A stretch of DNA of 64,000 nt from a virus. Its lineage: Duplodnaviria > Heunggongvirae > Uroviricota > Caudoviricetes. Both the position numbers and the translations under genes were made by a program. Each line of letters begins with the position of its first letter. The stretch's first letter is position 1. The notes under the pieces are model-generated. The model ran no database searches and had not been told where the DNA came from. It worked only from the letters and a program-made list of their open reading frames with translations. Positions 8,230 to 52,622 of the stretch are shown in pieces. The stretch is from IMG/VR virus record IMGVR_UViG_2859810971_000007. The stretch is one strand, 5' to 3'.

Positions 8230-8271
8230 TGAGGTGTACTGGCAATAGCGGACACTACCATTTGTTCTTTT

Positions 8272-9090
8272 TTAAGCAGCCATCTGATGATATTTTTCCC
8301 TGAAGGCTGCCGGGGAGATATTCCCCAGACGAGAGTGACGACGCTGACGATTGTAGAAAATCTCAATGTATTCCCGTATTACTGAGATGGCTTCATCCCG
8401 GTTATTAAAACGATAGTGGCTCAGGCTCTCATTTTTCAGCGTTCCCCAGAAGCTTTCCATCGGAGCATTGTCGTAACAGTTACCTTTACGCGACATTGAT
8501 GTTTTCAGACCAAACTGCTCCTGTATGACCCGGTAATCGTATGCGCAGTACTGTGAACCTCGATCAGAGTGGTGGATTAGCCCGGCAGGTGGGCGCTGGC
8601 TCCTGAGCGCCATAAACAGGGCTTTACCTGTCAGCTCTTTTGTCATGCGCTCTCCCATGGCGTAGCCGACAATTTCGCACGTATAAACATCTTTGATGCC
8701 AGCGAGGTACAACCATCCCTCCTGTGTGGCAACATACGTCAGGTCCGCCACCCAGACCTGATTTGGTGCTGTAGGAGCGAACGTCTGGTTCAGCAGATTT
8801 GGCGCAACTGGCAGATTGTGGTTCGGGTTCGTAGTCGCTCTGAACTTGCGTTTCTGCTTACAGCGTAGCCTCAGCTCCTTACGAAGACGTGCCAGTCGGT
8901 CACGACCAACGATGATGCCATTCTCTGCCAGCTCCGTCTGGAGCCGCCGGGTTCCATATGTTTCGCGAGTGCGGATATGTGCCACCTTAATCTCCAGTTT
9001 TAGCCGCTCATCACTTTGTTTTCTGTCTGAGGGTTCATGCTGTACCCAGTTGTAATAACCGCTCCTGGATACACCAAATACCTGACACAT
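8272..9090 (-). CDS. IS600 OrfB transposase (DDE)
   Basis: 272-aa ORF near-identical in all five copies; IS3-family integrase-core motifs. Confidence 0.9.
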   Translation of the reverse strand: MCQVFGVSRSGYYNWVQHEPSDRKQSDERLKLEIKVAHIRTRETYGTRRLQTELAENGIIVGRDRLARLRKELRLRCKQKRKFRATTNPNHNLPVAPNLLNQTFAPTAPNQVWVADLTYVATQEGWLYLAGIKDVYTCEIVGYAMGERMTKELTGKALFMALRSQRPPAGLIHHSDRGSQYCAYDYRVIQEQFGLKTSMSRKGNCYDNAPMESFWGTLKNESLSHYRFNNRDEAISVIREYIEIFYNRQRRHSRLGNISPAAFREKYHQMAA

Positions 9091-9366
9091 CGCTTCAATG
9101 GGAAATTGTTGTCGCCATTGTTCGATTAACGCGTATTTTTCAGCGACTCCTGTGCAAAATACGCTGTTGCTTTTTTTAATATATCGCGCTCAAGGCGAGC
9201 TTCATTTAACGCCTTACGCAGTTGCAGAATTTCAGATTCCAGTTCAGCCACCGTGCGGGAACCAGGAGTACCGAGCCCTTTTCTGGCGGCGGTAACCCAT
9301 TGTCCTAAAGTGTGAACCGCCCCGGGAATCCTGGAGACTAAACTTCCTGAGAAAGAGGTAAACAGG

Positions 9367-9689
9367 ATGACTAAAAATACTCGTTTTTCCCCCGAAGTCC
9401 GTCAACGGGCAGTCCGTATGGTTCTGGAAAGTCAGGGCGAATATGACTCACAATGGGCGACAATTTGTTCCATTGCCCCAAAGATTGGCTGTACGCCGGA
9501 GACTCTGCGTGTCTGGGTTCGCCAGCATGAGCGGGATACCGGGGGCGGTGATGGAGGGCTCACCACCGCTGAACGTCAGCGCCTGAAAGAGCTGGAGCGT
9601 GAAAATCGTGAACTGCGCCGCAGTAACAATATCCTTCGCCAGGCTTCCGCTTATTTTGCGAAGGCGGAGTTCGACCGCCTCTGGAAAAA

Positions 9690-9693
<4 letters not shown>
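9367..9693 (+). CDS. IS629 OrfA
   Basis: 108 aa [30 protein letters not shown]... HTH plus leucine zipper typical of IS3 OrfA. Confidence 0.8.
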
Positions 9694-10576
<883 letters not shown>

Positions 10577-10800
10577 GTTCACAGATAAAACACTCTCCAG
10601 GAAACCCGGGCGGTTCAGTGCCTTCAGGAAGAGATAATCGGGAAGCGCCTTCACTGATCGAAAGTTGATTTTCAAGAACCGTTCTGACAGCTTCGGCTTT
10701 GAACTCTTTAGAGTAACGTTGGGTTTTTCTGCTCATTATTAGCTCCTTCTGATGCCATTCTATTTCAGGAAGGAGTGTCCGTTAAACTCAGGCTACCTCA

Positions 10801-10881
10801 CTGATCCAACCACTGCAAAAACCAGTAGCCGGCACTGCCGGCGGAGGTGCCGTAGGCAATGCCTGTTGATATTTTTTCCAT
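10801..10881 (-). pseudogene. Holin N-terminal fragment, truncated by IS600
   Basis: Minus-strand [27 protein letters not shown] matches N-terminus of the holin at 47216; cut at IS600 end 10800. Confidence 0.45.
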
Positions 10882-11567
10882 CTGATACATATCCCGCCCC
10901 CCGACAGACCTGTGCTATCGGAAAGAAAAAAGGCCATCAGCAAAACTCTGATGGCCTGAATCACCTTTACCAATATTGTATGAAAAAACACGCACGACTA
11001 ATTGACAATAATTTTCATTTCCATTAAAAAAGATCGCGCAGCATTCTTAATTCATGAGGAACTTTACCCGCCAGCAATCTGAGTAGCGAAAGCTGTTCAT
11101 CCCAATGTTTTTGCTGGCGGGTCCTTTTTTCTACGGTCCTCCTCCCCGGAGGGGCATTTCATTATTTTTCTAATCGTTACTGGTGAGAAGGCGGAAGAAA
11201 AAGCCAGTTCTTCGCCCCTAAATAATAGCATGATTCCAGTCCATGCAAAATCTGATTTCCAGCTCACACATACCGAGCACTGTACAAAAAACCGCCAACC
11301 AAGGCAGTTAAGAGTGTGTTCCCGGGGTTTGCTTAGAATATTTTGTAAGTTGTCCGAAGAGATATTTACAACACCAGAATGATGCATTATCAGTCCCCTG
11401 CCAGAGGTTCACTACGTAACCTGACCGACAATGCACCATTCTGGTGCTGAAAAAAGAGCACTGGAACTGCAACAAAACAACATCACAGAACAGGAGATGG
11501 TAAGGAGTCAGACATTCCCACACAATATTGTGTCAGTGCAAATAACAACCTTCGTCTCAAATCTCGC

Positions 11568-11642
<75 letters not shown>

Positions 11643-11645
11643 ATA

Positions 11646-11720
<75 letters not shown>

Positions 11721-11722
11721 GC

Positions 11723-11799
11723 TGGCCCACCACCGAGGACTCGAACCTCGCACCGTCAACTTAGAAGGTTGATGCTCTATCCGGATGAGCTAGTGGTGG
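11723..11799 (-). tRNA. tRNA-Arg (anticodon TCT)
   Basis: 77 nt; anticodon loop CTTCTAA; acceptor CCACCAC/GTGGTGG; identical to plus copy. Confidence 0.75.
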
Positions 11800-11800
11800 T

Positions 11801-11877
11801 TGGTGGCCCTTGCTGGACTTGAACCAGCGACCTGGCGATTATGAGTCGCTCGCTCTGACCAACTGAGCTAAAGGGCC
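11801..11877 (-). tRNA. tRNA with CAT anticodon (ileX-like, Ile2 or Met)
   Basis: 77 nt; anticodon loop CTCATAA; sequence close to E. coli ileX as recalled. Confidence 0.75.
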
Positions 11878-11961
11878 GGAGGCAGAATAATAACCATATG
11901 TCATCACATCTGCAAACTCATCTGATCACCAGCACGTTTAACGTCCTGTGCCGTTTTTCAG

Positions 11962-11990
11962 GTATAAAAAAAACCGCATAAAGCGGGCTC
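11962..11990 (-). terminator. Candidate tR'-like intrinsic terminator downstream of Q-like gene
   Basis: Minus-strand short hairpin CCGC..GCGG followed by T8 run, between Q-like gene and tRNA array. Confidence 0.4.
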
Positions 11991-12066
11991 TTTCAAATGT
12001 CCATGTCTGCTATTCGCCTCGCGGTACAGCTTTGCGATGCGTACAAGAATTGAAGCAGTTTTTACG

Positions 12067-12621
12067 TCAAAAAGCAATAACTTTTTTCTCTATACCAAAA
12101 GCCATAACCATTGGTTTGTGCAAAATAAATTCTGCCACCTTTAGCCAATGCTCAATGCGTCTTTCACAGGTTCTTAAACTCCATTTCGGGTGTGCATCAT
12201 TCAGCAGTTCAGCCATTTTGCATTTGGTCATCCCCCGCCCCTCATACCGTTGCCGAAGGACGCTAATCAATCCTGGATGCTCTGCCAGCACCTCACTTAT
12301 GACCCGATCAATACATAACGCCTCTGCATCAGTACAATGCGCCAGCCAGCTCTTTTGCTTACCGTTAATCATATCCCGCAAAAAAGCCTCAAGTTCAGAC
12401 TTGTTCAGACCTGCTTTTTTCATCCTCCGGAGCGCCTCGTTAATTGCCGTTTTTGTCAGCTTTTTAGAGGTCAACATCAGGTTAAACATATTCCCCGTCT
12501 TACCGCCACCAATATACGACCAGCGCCCCCACATACGTAGTTTTCCCTGAATCCAGACACTTTCCAGCGTGGTGAGACGAAGGTGTTCTCCGCTTTTTCC
12601 TGTATTCGTTGGGTAAATCAT
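12067..12621 (-). CDS. Putative late-gene antiterminator (Q-like)
   Basis: 184 aa from MIYPTNTGKSGEHLRL; immediately upstream of terminator and tRNA array, the position Q occupies; family assignment by context. Confidence 0.45.
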   Translation of the reverse strand: MIYPTNTGKSGEHLRLTTLESVWIQGKLRMWGRWSYIGGGKTGNMFNLMLTSKKLTKTAINEALRRMKKAGLNKSELEAFLRDMINGKQKSWLAHCTDAEALCIDRVISEVLAEHPGLISVLRQRYEGRGMTKCKMAELLNDAHPKWSLRTCERRIEHWLKVAEFILHKPMVMAFGIEKKVIAF

Positions 12622-16150: not shown

Positions 16151-16897
16151 CTACTTAACAACCCTCGAATGGCTAACATTCGGACGCCAGCTCTCCCAGT
16201 TAAAATTCACCCAGCGCCCGCCGTTCATGACCATGCGATCCATCACCCGCTCGCCGAGCAATGTTTTCATCACCTCATAGTTCAGGTTTGTCAGCATCCC
16301 CACGCTACGCATCGACGCTGTCCGGCGATCAACAATCTGGTGCAGCACCACCTGCTCGTTTTTCGTCTCGCGCTGAATGCCAATTTCATCAAGAACCAGC
16401 AGATCCACTTCGCACAGCTCCCGCAAAAATTTTTCGCCTGACTGCCCGTCGTCATAGCTGGCGTGCAGGGCGCTCATAACATCAGCCACGGTAACCACAA
16501 TCACTGTCTGACCGTCTTTCAGCAGGCGATTCCCGATAGCTGCCGCTAAGTGATTCTACCCGGTATCAGGTTTTCCGCTGAACGCAAAATTTGTACACCC
16601 GGTCATCAGTTCATCGGCGATGGATTTCGCCTGGCTTAACGCGTATCGCTGGCCGTCGTTCTGCACCTGGTAATTCGCAAACGAGCATTTACGGTGCAAC
16701 GGCTGGATGCCTGAGCGATTCAGAATTTTTTCCACCCGCAACTGGCGATTCAGGCGGTTGATCTCCTCGCTACGTTTCTGGCCTTCAGCAAGTTGCCACT
16801 CGCGCCACTCCGCTACCGTTCTGAATGGGGCGGTTACATGTGGCGGGGTCAGTCGGCGGATGCGTTCCAGAACGCCGCCTGTCGCAATATTTTTCAT
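16151..16897 (-). pseudogene. DnaC-like helicase loader with in-frame amber codon
   Basis: Colinear with E. coli DnaC; single frame reads FSGKPDTG-TAG-NHLAAAI; TAG at 16556-16558 sits where the Walker A lysine is expected. Confidence 0.7.
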
Positions 16898-45837: not shown

Positions 45838-46041
45838 TTGATGAGCGTCAAAATTCAAACGATACCGGAACTGCTTATCCAGACACGAGGTAATATGACC
45901 GAAGTTTCACGAATGCTGAACTGTAATCGCGCCACGGTAAGAAAATATGCTGAAGATAAAGAGGGCAAAGGGCACGCCATTGTTGATGGTGTTCTGATTG
46001 TTCATCGTGGATGGGACAGGGGTAAAGACAGTGATGCGTGA
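45838..46041 (+). CDS. ninH: NinH-like protein
   Basis: 67 aa; ...[41 protein letters not shown] resembles lambda NinH. Confidence 0.55.
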
Positions 46042-46363
46042 TATTCAGCAGGTTCTTGAGCGCTGGGGCGCGTGGGTGGCTAATAATCATGAGGATGTGA
46101 CCTGGTCGTCCATTGCTGCCGGTTTTAAGGGATTAATCCCTTCAAAAGTAAAATCCCGCCCGCAATGCTGTGACGATGACGCGATGGTTATATGTGGGTG
46201 TATGGCCCGCCTTAACCGGAACAACAACGATCTACATGACTTGCTGGTTGACTACTACGTGTTTGGGATGACATTCATGACGCTGGCGCGGAAGCATGGA
46301 TGCTCAGATGGTTATATAGGAAAGAAGCTACAAAAAGCCGAGGGGTGGTGGAAGGAATGTTGA
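46034..46363 (+). CDS. quuD: Late-gene antiterminator Q (QuuD/phage-82 type)
   Basis: From [26 protein letters not shown]...[17 protein letters not shown], close to DLP12 QuuD as recalled; followed by terminator and late genes. Confidence 0.7.
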
Positions 46364-46612: not shown

Positions 46613-46689
46613 GGCCCTTTAGCTCAGTTGGTCAGAGCGAGCGACTCATAATCGCCAGGTCGCTGGTTCAAGTCCAGCAAGGGCCACCA
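46613..46689 (+). tRNA. tRNA with CAT anticodon (ileX-like, Ile2 or Met)
   Basis: 77 nt ending CCA; cloverleaf by hand; anticodon loop CTCATAA. Confidence 0.75.
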
Positions 46690-46690
46690 A

Positions 46691-46767
46691 CCACCACTAG
46701 CTCATCCGGATAGAGCATCAACCTTCTAAGTTGACGGTGCGAGGTTCGAGTCCTCGGTGGTGGGCCA
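46691..46767 (+). tRNA. tRNA-Arg (anticodon TCT)
   Basis: 77 nt; anticodon loop CTTCTAA. Confidence 0.75.
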
Positions 46768-46769
46768 GC

Positions 46770-46845
<76 letters not shown>

Positions 46846-46848
46846 TAT

Positions 46849-46923
<75 letters not shown>

Positions 46924-47215: not shown

Positions 47216-47431
47216 ATGAAATCCATGGACAAAATTTCAACGGGCATTGCCTACGGCACCTCCGCCGGCAGTGCCGGCTACTGGTTTTTGCAGTGGTTGG
47301 ATCAGGTCAGGCCATCACAGTGGGCTGCGATTGGTGTGCTGGGAAGTCTGCTTCTGGGGCTTCTGACTTATCTGACGAATCTGTATTTCAAAATAAGAGA
47401 AGACAAGCGTAAGGCTGCACGGGGAGAGTAA
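47216..47431 (+). CDS. Holin (phage-21 S-type)
   Basis: 71 aa with hydrophobic segments and charged C-terminus [13 protein letters not shown]; first gene after Q/tRNA region. Confidence 0.7.
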
Positions 47432-47434
47432 ATA

Positions 47435-48028
47435 ATGAAGCATGAAGAAATGAATCAGCGATTCAATCACCTGGAAAATGAAATCACTGAGCTTAATAAA
47501 AAATTGTCGGCGTTGGTGAGTTCTGAAGATGAAAACAAACGCCGCGATGAGCATTATGCGGCGATTTACGATTACTGCCACAAAGTCGCTCACGAGACTT
47601 TTATGAAGTTTTTGCAGGAAAAGTTTTTACCGGCCGCATTGTCAGAAAAAGAGGCGGCTTACCTGCGGCCTGAGTACGTCATTACGGTTAACAGTGCCGG
47701 AGAGGAAGAGCATAAAAGTGATTTTATTGCGTCTGCACCGGATAAAGACCAGGAACCCCATCGGCCTTTCAGGGTTTCCTGTGAAGAGGGTGAGTTCGTC
47801 GTTTATGAGAACGGAAAACCTGTCCGGGCATCGCATCATCACTGCCTGAAAATTATTAATCTCGCTATCAGATGCCTGAAAGACGAAAACACCAGAGTTA
47901 TGAAACGCATTGGCCGTTGCATGGGGTATTTGCAGGTGGCGGCAGAGATTGAAGCACTTGCCAGTGGTGCAGACATGGATGCTGCGGTGCGGGAGGCTCT
48001 TCTTCGTGATTTCAATACTCCCCTTTAA
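47435..48028 (+). CDS. Hypothetical protein between holin and endolysin
   Basis: 197-aa ORF starting 4 bp after holin stop; no family recognised. Confidence 0.4.
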   Translation: MKHEEMNQRFNHLENEITELNKKLSALVSSEDENKRRDEHYAAIYDYCHKVAHETFMKFLQEKFLPAALSEKEAAYLRPEYVITVNSAGEEEHKSDFIASAPDKDQEPHRPFRVSCEEGEFVVYENGKPVRASHHHCLKIINLAIRCLKDENTRVMKRIGRCMGYLQVAAEIEALASGADMDAAVREALLRDFNTPL

Positions 48029-48128
48029 GAAAGAGCCTGATGACTGGATCCAGCCGGGGCTGACTTATCTTAAAAGGCGTATATAAGTTGGCTCGTTATT
48101 TGTTGCCGATAAATCCTGATAAATATCC

Positions 48129-48653
48129 ATGAGCGCAAAAATCAAATACGGCCTGTCGGCTGCTGTTCTGGCGCTGATTGCCGCAGGCGCGTCTGCTCCC
48201 CAGATACTTGACCAGTTTCTGAACGAAAAAGAGGGTAATCACACAACGGCATACCGTGATGGTTCTGGCATATGGACCATCTGTCGTGGTGCCACAATGG
48301 TGGATGGTAAGCCTGTCATACCGGGAATGAAGCTGTCGAAGGAAAAATGTGACCAGGTTAACGCTATTGAACGTGATAAGGCGCTGGCATGGGTGGAGCG
48401 CAATATTAAAGTACCTCTGACCGAACCCCAGAAAGCGGGTATAGCGTCATTTTGCCCCTATAACATTGGCCCCGGTAAGTGTTTCCCGTCGACGTTTTAT
48501 AAGCGGCTGAATGCCGGTGATCGTAAGGGCGCATGCGAGGCGATTCGCTGGTGGATAAAAGATGTTGGGCGCGATTGCCGCATACGTTCAAATAACTGCT
48601 ATGGACAGGTTATTCGTCGTGACCAGGAAAGCGCATTAGCCTGTTGGGGATAG
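48129..48653 (+). CDS. Endolysin (lysozyme family with N-terminal signal-anchor)
   Basis: 174 aa; hydrophobic N-terminus then lysozyme-like core ([21 protein letters not shown]). Confidence 0.75.
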
Positions 48654-48657
48654 ATCA

Positions 48658-49266
48658 ATGAGCAGAGTCACCGCGATTATCTCCGCTCTGGTTATCTGCA
48701 TCATCGTCTGCCTGTCATGGGCTGTTAATCATTACCGTGATAACGCCATTACCTACAAAGAGCAGCGCGACAAAAACGCAAGAGAACTGAAGCTGGCGAA
48801 CGCAACCATTACTGACATGCAGCAGCGCCAGCGTGATGCTGATGCACTCGATGCTAAATACACGAAGGAGTTAGCTGATGCGAAAGCTGAAAATGATGCT
48901 CTTCGGCGCAAGCTTGATAATGGTGGTCGGGTGCTCGTCAAAGGAAAATGCCCTGTGCCATCCTCAGCCGAAACCTCCAGCGCCTCCGGCATGGGCAATG
49001 ATGCCACCGTCGAACTCTCTCCAGTTGCTGGACGAAACGTTCTCGGTATCCGGGACGGAATCATCAGCGACCAGACAGCATTGAGAATGCTTCAGGAGTA
49101 CATCAGGATCCAATGCCTTGGGGGTAGCGGTAATTTTACTCATTATCCTTCAAATCAGATTCTGTTGTCAGAGGAATGGGGGAAGCTGGATTCGCAAGAG
49201 CTTTTTATGGGCAGTTTAGCTAAAAAAAGGCAACACGAAGCTAAAACTACCAACATAAAGTGCTGA
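48658..49266 (+). CDS. Rz i-spanin, apparently C-terminally extended
   Basis: N-terminal TM plus coiled coil typical of Rz; ORF runs about 45 codons past the expected end and overlaps the convergent gene. Confidence 0.6.
48878..49084 (+). CDS. Rz1 o-spanin lipoprotein embedded in Rz
   Basis: 68 aa in +1 frame inside Rz; lipobox VVGCSS; proline-rich. Confidence 0.6.
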
Positions 49267-49728
49267 CCAGCTAGCAGCTGAAATCAGACTCACTGTATAC
49301 ACTTTCACTGGATGAAGTTGCAACATTCCTGCCACCAAAGGAGCAATGTAACGCAGCACGGCGATAAAGCGCGAAGTGAAAAGTATTGACACAGAGTTAT
49401 TTTGCAACTGAAGGCGAACCCGTTCTATTGTATTGGAACGGCTCGATATTATACATGCAAGTTGAGGGATATGCCCAATTATTATACCAAGATGGTAATT
49501 AACGATAGTACCGCACCATGCGCCACTCATGACCGTGATTCCAGCTTCCCATGGTGAAAGAGTCGTCTTGCTGACTGTAATGACAGTGGCCATCATAATT
49601 GATGCTGGTGGCAATATCGCCGAAATGAGTAAAGTGGATTTTGTGAACGCTATTATAAAAAGAAGCCCCCATAGGCGATATGGATGAAGTACAAAATAGT
49701 TCATCAAAGCATTTATCCACTCCATCAA
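49216..49728 (-). CDS. DedA-family (VTT-domain) membrane protein
   Basis: 170 aa, multiple TM segments; [17 protein letters not shown] resembles the DedA signature. Confidence 0.45.
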
Positions 49729-50685: not shown

Positions 50686-51394
50686 TTTCTGGACTATGCG
50701 GGCACGTAACAAAGTGCTTTATGGTGGTCGGTCATCGTCAAAATCATGGGATGCCGCTGGCATTGCCATATTTCTGTCGAATAAATACACCCTGCGTTTT
50801 TGTTGTGCCCGTCAGATCCAGAATAAAATCGAAGAGTCGGTGTATACCCTGCTCAAAATTCAGATAGACAGGTTTGGTCTGCGGCACCGTTTCCGTATTC
50901 TGAACAACAAAATCATTAACCGGGTTACTGGCTCGGAATTTGTTTTTTATGGATTATGGCGCAACATCGAAGAAATTAAGTCACTGGAGGGGATCGATGT
51001 GTTGTGGCTGGAAGAAGCCCACGCACTGACGGAATACCAGTGGAAAATTCTGGAGCCAACGATCCGTAAAGAGGGTTCGGAATGCTGGTTCATATTCAAC
51101 CCCGGACTTGTTACTGATTTCGTCTGGCGCAACTTCGTTGTTGATCCGCCCGAAGGCACTCTCATCCGCAAAATTAACTATGACGAAAATCCGTTTCTGT
51201 CTGACACCATGCTTAAGGTTATCGACGCGGCGCGACGCCGTGATCCGGATGGTTTTAAACATGTGTATGAGGGCGTTCCGGAGTCTGATGATGATGCGGC
51301 AATTAGACTGGCCCCCTGAATCTCCAGACAACCAGTATCACTTAAATAAGTGATAGTCTTAATACTAGTTTTTAGACTAGTCATTGGAGAACAG

Positions 51395-51826
51395 ATGATT
51401 GATGTCTTAGGGCCGGAGAAACGCAGACGGCGTACCACACAGGAAAAGATCGCAATTGTTCAGCAGAGCTTTGAACCGGGGATGACGGTCTCCCTCGTTG
51501 CCCGGCAACATGGTGTAGCAGCCAGCCAGTTATTTCTCTGGCGTAAGCAATACCAGGAAGGAAGTCTTACTGCTGTGGCCGCCGGAGAACAGGTTGTTCC
51601 TGCCTCTGAACTTGCTGCCGCCATGAAGCAGATTAAAGAACTCCAGCGCCTGCTCGGCAAGAAAACGATGGAAAATGAACTCCTCAAAGAAGCCGTTGAA
51701 TATGGACGGGCAAAAAAGTGGATAGCGCACGCGCCCTTATTGCCCGGGATGGGGAGTAAGCTTAGTCAGCCGTTGTCTCCGGGTGTCGCGTGCGCAGTTG
51801 CACGTCATTCTCAGACGAACCGATGA
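51395..51826 (+). CDS. insC: IS2 InsC, altered C-terminus
   Basis: Reads ..[17 protein letters not shown].. instead of ..LLPGDGE-stop because of the G3 run at 51746-51748. Confidence 0.6.
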
Positions 51827-52622
51827 CTGGATGGATGGCCGCCGCAGTCGTCACACTGATGATACGGATGTGCTTCTCCGTATACACCATGTTATCGGAG
51901 AGCTGCCCACGTATGGTTATCGTCGGGTATGGGCGCTGCTTCGCAGACAGGCAGAACTTGATGGTATGCCTGCGATCAATGCCAAACGTGTTTACCGGCT
52001 CATGCGCCAGAATGCGCTGTTGCTTGAGCGAAAACCTGCTGTACCGCCATCGAAACGGGCACATACAGGCAGAGTGGCCGTGAAAGAAAGCAATCAGCGA
52101 TGGTGCTCTGACGGGTTCGAGTTCTGCTGTGATAACGGAGAGAGACTGCGTGTCACGTTCGCGCTGGACTGCTGTGATCGTGAGGCACTGCACTGGGCGG
52201 TGACTACCGGCGGCTTCAACAGTGAAACAGTACAGGACGTCATGCTGGGAGCGGTGGAACGCCGCTTCGGCAACGATCTTCCGTCGTCTCCAGTGGAGTG
52301 GCTGACGGATAATGGTTCATGCTACCGGGCTAATGAAACACGCCAGTTCGCCCGGATGTTGGGACTTGAACCGAAGAACACGGCGGTGCGGAGTCCGGAG
52401 AGTAACGGAATAGCAGAGAGCTTCGTGAAAACGATAAAGCGTGACTACATCAGTATCATGCCCAAACCAGACGGGTTAACGGCAGCAAAGAACCTTGCAG
52501 AGGCGTTCGAGCATTATAACGAATGGCATCCGCATAGTGCGCTGGGTTATCGCTCGCCACGGGAATATCTGCGGCAGCGGGCTTGTAATGGGTTAAGTGA
52601 TAACAGATGTCTGGAAATATAG
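51783..52622 (+). pseudogene. insD: IS2 InsD, N-terminally truncated
   Basis: InsD frame is closed by a stop upstream of 51783 as a result of the same 1-nt difference. Confidence 0.6.

Follow-up and report, generated by a model that had tools for sequence, protein, structure and literature searches.

The 64,000-nucleotide stretch of viral DNA analyzed here (IMG/VR record IMGVR_UViG_2859810971_000007; the whole stretch is called the window below) carries a defective lambdoid prophage of the Shigella flexneri type, whose lysis cassette contains an open reading frame (ORF) of 197 amino acids (aa) between the genes for an S21-type holin and a signal-arrest-release (SAR)-type lysozyme, the endolysin. 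Comparison with its relatives places this ORF in the protein family phrog_1085 and points to the loss of its C terminus by a frameshift. We consider it somewhat probable, as a joint claim, that the ORF is a real phrog_1085 gene, that the window holds a degenerate copy of it, and that its product is a dispensable cytoplasmic late accessory protein.

Conservation and family membership of the ORF

A single-sequence search of 5.8 billion proteins returned 137 homologues at E ≤ 1e-3, all of them from E. coli or Shigella, and a profile built from distant members gathered 526 proteins, adding many from Salmonella enterica. An exhaustive hidden Markov model scan of 1.84 billion cluster representatives gave only 43 matches, the whole-library hits covering the C-terminal domain, and only three loci (in S. 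flexneri, E. coli, and an Escherichia sp.) turned up when each species was represented by one genome, a count that understates the Salmonella members since restrictive peptide patterns were used. After repair of the window gene in silico, comparison with 12 relatives by the Nei-Gojobori method gave ratios of nonsynonymous to synonymous substitution (dN/dS) of 0.24 to 0.50 overall and 0.18 to 0.29 in the C-terminal domain, and in the same comparison the dN of the C-terminal tail was below that of the domain itself. Judged by these relatives, the ORF is a genuine conserved gene of a taxonomically narrow Escherichia/Shigella/Salmonella prophage family.

The earlier note on this DNA had held that a lack of conservation would suggest a spurious ORF. 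That the ORF has no product is hardly credible: it has no annotated function and structure prediction for it is poor, as might be expected of a chance frame, but it has hundreds of homologues in conserved length classes, a good Shine-Dalgarno sequence, and conserved synteny. We rejected this explanation on the conservation and on the dN/dS values, which are well under 1.

The same note recognized no family for the ORF. Indeed, Pfam and NCBIfam hold none, and the searches against PADLOC and PDB sequences and three fold searches were also negative. The ORF is nonetheless catalogued: the profile searches that the note had proposed matched it to phrog_1085 (E 4.6e-69, 234 bits, profile positions 117 to 275 of 296), and the structure predictions, taken through the fold searches, gave no function. 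The window protein lacks the N-terminal DUF1327 part of the phrog_1085 profile and its last 21 positions, which form a conserved tail. All six PHROG matches of the ORF are to families with no assigned function. The fragment families of phrog_1085 are phrog_36381, phrog_26186, and phrog_15975, and Salmonella and metagenomic relatives match the same phrog_1085 profile.

Many homologues are 268 to 333 aa long and carry DUF1327 (PF07041) at the N terminus, and NCBI records name them "YdfR family protein" or "DUF1327 domain-containing protein." PF07041 gave no match in the window ORF even at E ≤ 1 and scored 6.6e-35 in the long relative P0003. The window ORF is 82% identical to residues 120 to 333 of P0003, and in our alignments A1 and A4 it corresponds to the C-terminal two-thirds, that is, the coiled coil and the C-terminal domain, of the long YdfR-family proteins. 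Across alignments A1 to A4, the family is composed of an optional DUF1327, a linker, a coiled coil, a variable and indel-rich spacer, and a conserved C-terminal domain of ~110 aa, which ends in the tail PPFKKxPxxWxxPGxxYLKxRI. The Salmonella members have, in place of DUF1327, an analogous beta-beta-beta-alpha N-domain that the Pfam DUF1327 model does not detect.

The forms that occupy this position in the cassette are DUF1327 alone (short YdfR, 104 aa, in mEp460 and PhiR47_1), DUF1327 followed by the coiled coil (211 aa, in PhiR5_1), an N-less form of 185 to 222 aa that includes the window gene, and the full-length form. By their domain composition, short YdfR, long YdfR, and the N-less form represent modular alternatives at a single locus.

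A frameshift separates the gene from its conserved tail

Relatives run ~20 residues beyond the end of the window ORF; intact ones end in DFNTPPFKKEPDDWIQPGLTYLKGRI, and the window protein ends in DFNTPL. The frame is lost in a C/T homopolymer tract (Table 1), and the displaced tail appears in an overlapping ORF (47910..48086) that ends in PFKKEPDDWIQPGLTYLKRRI followed by a stop codon. The comparison places the ancestral end of the gene at 48086, not 48028, so that the ancestral gap to the endolysin gene would have been 42 bp instead of 100 bp. The earlier note had read the ORF to 48028 and had pointed to a 100-bp gap; both are exact for the letters as they stand, but the note missed that this 3' end is not the ancestral one and that the copy is frameshifted and has lost the most conserved motif of the family.

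A longer truncated allele, with a C5T3 tract, encodes 209 aa ending in PPLRKSLMTGSSRG; it is common in S. flexneri and was found in six complete E. coli genomes. We scanned 90 sequences, including the window, for the tail. One had no core motif, and the conserved tail was in frame in 75 of the remaining 89 loci; the 14 exceptions comprised a single 209-aa lineage and the window. Since 5 of the 11 invariant columns of the divergent alignment A2 fall within the tail, its loss probably disables or changes the protein. In all likelihood, the allele in the window is disabled or attenuated. Damaged family genes are common at other loci too, with one flagged by PGAP as "frameshifted" and another as "incomplete."

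The exact 197-aa protein was present on a single 4.53-Mb contig in a collection of 15 billion proteins. Over 6.4 kb, the region is 99.4% identical to a prophage of E. coli CFSAN029787, and only three indels separate the two, at 46341 in the antiterminator Q gene, at 48020-48023 in the ORF, and at 48645 in the lysozyme gene. They shorten Q (121 versus 126 aa), the ORF product (197 versus 209 aa), and the lysozyme (174 versus 177 aa). All three are contractions of a homopolymer run from five to four, of G in the Q and lysozyme genes and of C in the ORF, a pattern that suggests homopolymer under-calling in the assembly, superimposed on a genuine 209-aa allele. Thus, the 197-aa length may in part be a sequencing artifact on a real 209-aa S. 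flexneri allele.

Ribosomal slippage could bypass the frameshift, in which case full-length protein would still be made. In the window, CCC CUU UAA G (48017-48029) resembles a prfB-type +1 site, with CUU followed by a stop codon, and in the 209-aa allele, C CCU UUA (L090:4064-4090) is an X XXY YYZ heptamer at which a -1 slip would restore the exact wild-type tail. Furthermore, the out-of-frame tail of the window matches the tail of the intact P0003, and the 209-aa allele is carried widely by prophages that are otherwise complete. We nevertheless regard slippage as very improbable, since no Shine-Dalgarno-like stimulator lies upstream of the tract, the predicted folding of the RNA downstream of it does not surpass that of shuffled controls (z = 0.10), and the intact alleles found elsewhere have no need of it. 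Members of the lineage share at least 99% identity, so recent mutation is enough to explain why the tail has not decayed, and the other two indels of the region show the five-to-four homopolymer contraction that is indicative of error or decay.

Position in the lysis cassette and expected expression

The coordinates of the ORF, of its parts, and of the neighboring genes are given in Table 1. The ORF lies where the earlier note had placed it, just after the stop codon of the holin gene (TAA, 47429-47431), from which a spacer of 3 nucleotides (ATA) separates its ATG, and the identification of its neighbors as holin and endolysin genes agrees with the Pfam matches of both. Read from the translation, the N terminus of the lysozyme is Gly/Ala rich and SAR-like.

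Table 1. Features of the lysis region and of the 197-aa ORF, in window coordinates
Feature	Position	Strand	Description
Antiterminator Q gene	45998..46363	+	PF06530, 1.8e-48; 121 aa; equivalent in locus L001 annotated as antiterminator Q family protein
Four phage tRNA genes	46613..46923	+	Met/Ile-CAT, Arg-TCT, Thr-TGT, Gly-TCC (ARAGORN); between Q and lysis cassette
S21-type class II holin	47216..47431	+	71 aa; PF04971 (P21 holin S), 5.5e-35; phrog_9876/phrog_20 holin
Shine-Dalgarno sequence of ORF, GGAG	47423..47426	+	Within last holin codons, 8 nucleotides ahead of ATG; read from sequence
ORF	47435..48028	+	ATG 47435, TAA 48026-48028; 197 aa; N-less phrog_1085 member (long-YdfR C-module family), C terminus frameshifted
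ORF residues 1-64	47435..47626	+	Two long coiled-coil-like helices; conserved LENEIxELNKKLS and EDEKKRRDEQFAAFYDYC; A1, A4; only coiled-coil-type weak Pfam hits
ORF residues 65-108	47627..47758	+	Variable, indel rich; absent from 185-aa relatives (A1); pLDDT <50
ORF residues 109-196	47759..48022	+	Conserved C-terminal domain: beta-hairpins, SHxH, MKRIGRCMGYLQVAAEIEA; no Pfam model; invariant or near-invariant columns in A1 to A3
Homopolymer tract C4T3, frame lost	48020..48026	+	C5T4 in intact relatives; C5T3 in common S. flexneri/E. coli 209-aa allele
Out-of-frame tail remnant FKKEPDDWIQPGLTYLKRRI and stop	48024..48086	+ (+1 frame)	Matches P0003 tail; tblastn of C-domain tail at 48021-48074
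SAR-type phage lysozyme (endolysin)	48129..48653	+	174 aa; PF00959, 5.1e-24; phrog_7
Rz spanin gene	48658..49118	+	PF03245, 2e-29; homology to relatives stops at ~49118
Rz1-like lipoprotein ORF embedded in Rz	48878-49084	+	VVGC lipobox, proline rich, intact

The location of the Shine-Dalgarno sequence of the ORF inside the 3' end of the holin gene suggests translational coupling to the holin. In a consensus scan, we found no promoter-like or terminator-like site on the + strand between 47432 and 48128, and the sole terminator-like site on that strand falls inside the holin gene. With no flanking promoter or terminator and with coupling to the holin stop, the ORF is expected to be expressed from the Q-dependent late transcript together with the lysis proteins. 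Antiterminator Q drives read-through of the late operon. The GC content of the ORF is 46.6%, versus 51 to 52% in the neighboring genes.

The slot between holin and endolysin is a site of exchange

The earlier note had started from the premise that holin and endolysin genes are usually adjacent. For S21-type cassettes this premise is weak: an S21-type holin is present in 438 phage records, and 106 of these contain some part of a gene of the YdfR family. The note's view of the slot as a common position for accessory genes is borne out in that an extra gene recurs there in S21-type cassettes. The comparison of lysis cassettes that it called for put the gene between the S21 holin and the lysozyme in all 80 IMG/VR loci found with the E. 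coli-type profile, 9 of which also have DUF1327. The C-terminal domain occurred in only a handful of the 438 records. Its most conserved segment was present in 787 of 5426 complete E. coli genomes (~15%), and full-length family members were found in several Shiga toxin (Stx)-converting phages.

In PhiR47_1, the tRNA, holin, and lysozyme flanks are ~95% identical to those of the window, and the slot holds the 104-aa short YdfR. Near-identical flanks thus hold either short YdfR or a window-type gene, showing that the gene is an exchangeable cassette. In Salmonella, a family member is flanked by Q/HicAB and by an HP1-type holin, from which only a convergent 105-aa gene separates it, and in locus L006 the family gene stands one or two genes upstream of an S21 holin. 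The endolysins of L003 and L006 have Gly/Ala-rich, SAR-like N termini, and in L002, stx and nanS-p lie upstream of the holin.

A convergent gene of 104 to 105 aa that belongs to phrog_1853 and matches no Pfam family accompanies the family gene in E. coli Stx2a phages, in Salmonella prophages, and in a metagenomic contig (L002:4777-5091, L003:4808-5125, and L007:585-902, all on the - strand). It is convergent to the 3' end of the family gene, which it overlaps in L007, and its product is 53% identical between E. coli (Stx2a phage) and Salmonella. It lies between the ORF and the lysozyme gene in about a quarter of all loci examined and is absent from the window. The phrog_1853 protein could be a functional partner of the family gene; we rejected it as an obligatory one, given that the window and about three-quarters of the examined loci lack it. 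The convergent gene of PhiR5_1 is unrelated to phrog_1853.

Such a cassette could also be cargo unrelated to lysis or RNA, for example an anti-defense, superinfection-exclusion, or toxin-like gene, possibly a two-gene cassette with phrog_1853. The lysis region is highly expressed and tolerates insertions, morons classically reside downstream of Q (as with stx and nanS-p in L002), and the family is mosaic and indel rich, with shuffled modules and with a presence that differs between near-identical phages. The low GC content of the ORF and the conservation of the convergent phrog_1853 gene fit this explanation as well. We consider it unlikely, since PADLOC gave no defense-system match for the ORF or for the phrog_1853 protein, the would-be partner is missing from most loci, the ORF is without the promoter and terminator that define a moron, and it has no invariant toxin-like or enzymatic motif.

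In many records of Stx1a and Stx2c phages, the stretch between holin and endolysin contains YdfR-like coding sequence that bears no annotation (for example, AF034975.3, H-19B, 16464-16799). The slot gene is systematically under-annotated in phage records.

Properties and proposed function of the ORF product

The window protein has a maximum 19-residue Kyte-Doolittle hydropathy of 0.76, a grand average of hydropathy of -0.61, and a pI of 5.7; hydropathy revealed no membrane segment and no hydrophobic N terminus, and the protein is by these measures soluble and acidic. AlphaFold2 (AF2) models, scored by the predicted local distance difference test (pLDDT), show two long N-terminal helices (residues 3 to 27 and 31 to 64), a low-confidence spacer, beta-hairpins, and a helical bundle. 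The block pLDDT values are 78 and 85 over the first 20 residues and 55 to 64 thereafter. In a separate observation, residues 1 to 75 of P0003, its DUF1327/YdfR N-domain, were modeled (m5dcc59b141be) with a pLDDT of ~79 to 97 as a three-stranded sheet on one long helix.

A PDB sequence-profile search with the ORF returned nothing below E 0.15. Weak Pfam hits to EzrA, Relaxase_C, and YqeY were discarded as coiled-coil or helical noise, as they are not shared across 68 diverse members. Homology to a known lysis accessory protein, which the earlier note thought would make the gene ordinary, was likewise sought: the ORF matched no lysis-annotated PHROG or Pfam family, and three neighboring genes matched lysis families in the same searches.

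Residues 1 to 72 of K-12 YdfR, that is, DUF1327, interact with RNase E residues 1 to 597 in a bacterial two-hybrid assay, copurify RNase E residues 1 to 598, and carry RNA, according to a 2026 screen (PMC13232886). In the literature, we found no functional study of DUF1327 or YdfR besides this RNase E interaction screen. The fusion of the C-module to DUF1327 in much of the family's diversity suggests that the two act in the same pathway. We propose that the ORF product would be a soluble, acidic, oligomeric cytoplasmic protein that probably serves the YdfR system as its effector or partner-binding half. The C-module of long relatives is tethered by fusion to DUF1327, for which binding to the catalytic half of RNase E and copurification of RNA have been reported. 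On this view, the family would be dispensable, would modulate RNA turnover of the host or phage in the late phase, and would ride in the lysis cassette with a role outside the envelope-disrupting machinery. An RNase E-linked late modulation of RNA turnover, put forward from this domain fusion, is a tentative proposal.

Several observations weigh against our proposal. The RNase E link comes from domain fusion in relatives only, and the window gene has no DUF1327. Overproduction of YdfR had little effect on the transcriptome (PMC13232886). The AF2 models of the C-module are poor: the mean pLDDT was 57 for a standalone 217-aa relative (23 sequences) and 62 for a 333-aa fused relative (68 sequences), in which only the DUF1327 domain was confident, and the blocks of the C-terminal domain ranged from 53 to 80. 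The three fold searches gave only generic helical matches. The truncated 209-aa allele sits in apparently complete prophages, so a tail-less protein might keep some activity. Finally, a role in lysis timing would be just as compatible with the location of the gene next to holin and endolysin in three cassette types.

As a cytoplasmic regulator of lysis timing, the protein would bind either the pinholin, at its cytoplasmic C-terminal tail, or the membrane-tethered SAR endolysin, on its cytoplasmic side, and would delay or sharpen triggering as the soluble regulators T4 RIII and P1 LydB do. The family is always found beside a class II holin and a SAR-type lysozyme, as in the 80 E. coli-type loci, in Salmonella, where the gene is just upstream of the HP1-type holin, and in L006, where it is upstream of the S21 holin; the SAR-like endolysins of L003 and L006, the start 3 nucleotides past the holin stop with a Shine-Dalgarno sequence within the holin gene, and the lack of an own promoter or terminator are all in keeping with this role. 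It is, however, rather unlikely in our view. The protein resembles no PHROG or Pfam lysis family and has no membrane segment, and it is swapped freely for short YdfR between flanks that are 95% identical, with no visible coadaptation with the holin or endolysin. In addition, the C-module is absent from most S21 cassettes, the position relative to the holin varies, and broken copies are common.

The proposed link to RNA turnover and a role in lysis could also be combined, with the C-terminal domain and its proline/aromatic tail, DUF1327, and the coiled coil forming a modular lysis-cassette system through which host RNase E or RNA turnover, or some other target in the cytoplasm, would be coupled to lysis timing or lysis yield. 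We hold this to be doubtful. If it were true, the C-terminal domain would be an unrecognized domain and define an undescribed class of cytoplasmic lysis-cassette regulator in lambdoid phages, Stx-converting ones among them, of E. coli, Shigella, and Salmonella, and the frameshift alleles could be natural loss-of-function or slippage-rescued variants.

State of the prophage and surrounding features

The gene for the terminase large subunit (PF04466, 50528-51319) is cut by an IS3-family insertion sequence (IS) element (51350-52622) composed of an HTH_Tnp_1 ORF and an rve integrase ORF. With this subunit truncated, the prophage cannot be packaging competent. The 3' end of Rz has been replaced, and its frame (48658-49266) runs to 202 aa, versus 155 aa in CFSAN029787. 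Between the Rz and terminase genes lies a gene for a VTT/DedA-domain membrane protein (49216-49728, - strand, 170 aa, PF09335, 9.2e-14), which stands where CFSAN029787 has a ParDE/KilA-N block and may be lysogenic-conversion cargo.

The tRNA block is also annotated in L001 and PhiR47_1. ARAGORN calls the first gene tRNA-Met (CAT), and the RefSeq equivalent in CFSAN029787 is called tRNA-Ile, a label that presumably reflects a lysidine-modified CAT anticodon; at the second position, PhiR47_1 has a Lys tRNA, versus Arg in the window. IS elements have broken up a second lambdoid late region (8261-12300, - strand), in which the tRNA block recurs (11567-11971) and only the first 30 codons of an S21-type holin are present (10801-10890). 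An 862-bp IS segment is repeated at about 8261, 21292, 32737, 41488, and 58360, as is typical of Shigella.

Significance and comparison with known systems

The window copy is in itself of little consequence, being a truncated version, in an IS-riddled defective Shigella-type prophage, of a gene that databases already list as "hypothetical protein" or phrog_1085. The analysis corrects the gene model to an ancestral end at 48086 and marks homopolymer errors as likely in the assembly. If the family tunes lysis or the stability of late RNA, it could influence Shiga-toxin release because stx is in the same late transcript. The family is a reasonable target for work on lysis or RNA turnover in Stx phages.

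Among known systems, T4 RIII and P1 LydB are small, soluble, cytoplasmic, encoded next to the holin, and late, as proposed here for the ORF product. The window ORF differs from them in having no similarity to the PHROG lysis families and in being exchangeable and often broken. With the lambdoid late-operon morons (stx, nanS-p, and bor) it shares the character of a variably present accessory gene after Q, of slightly lower GC content; it differs in having no promoter or terminator of its own, in lying inside the lysis cassette, and in its apparent coupling to the holin. YdfR itself, with DUF1327, occupies in the K-12 Qin prophage and in phage mEp460 the same slot, directly after the S21-type holin and before the lysozyme, and the sole experimental data, on RNase E and RNA, concern DUF1327 (PMC13232886). 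The window ORF lacks DUF1327, and short YdfR lacks any sequence of the window ORF; the two are alternative or combinable modules of the locus rather than homologues of each other.

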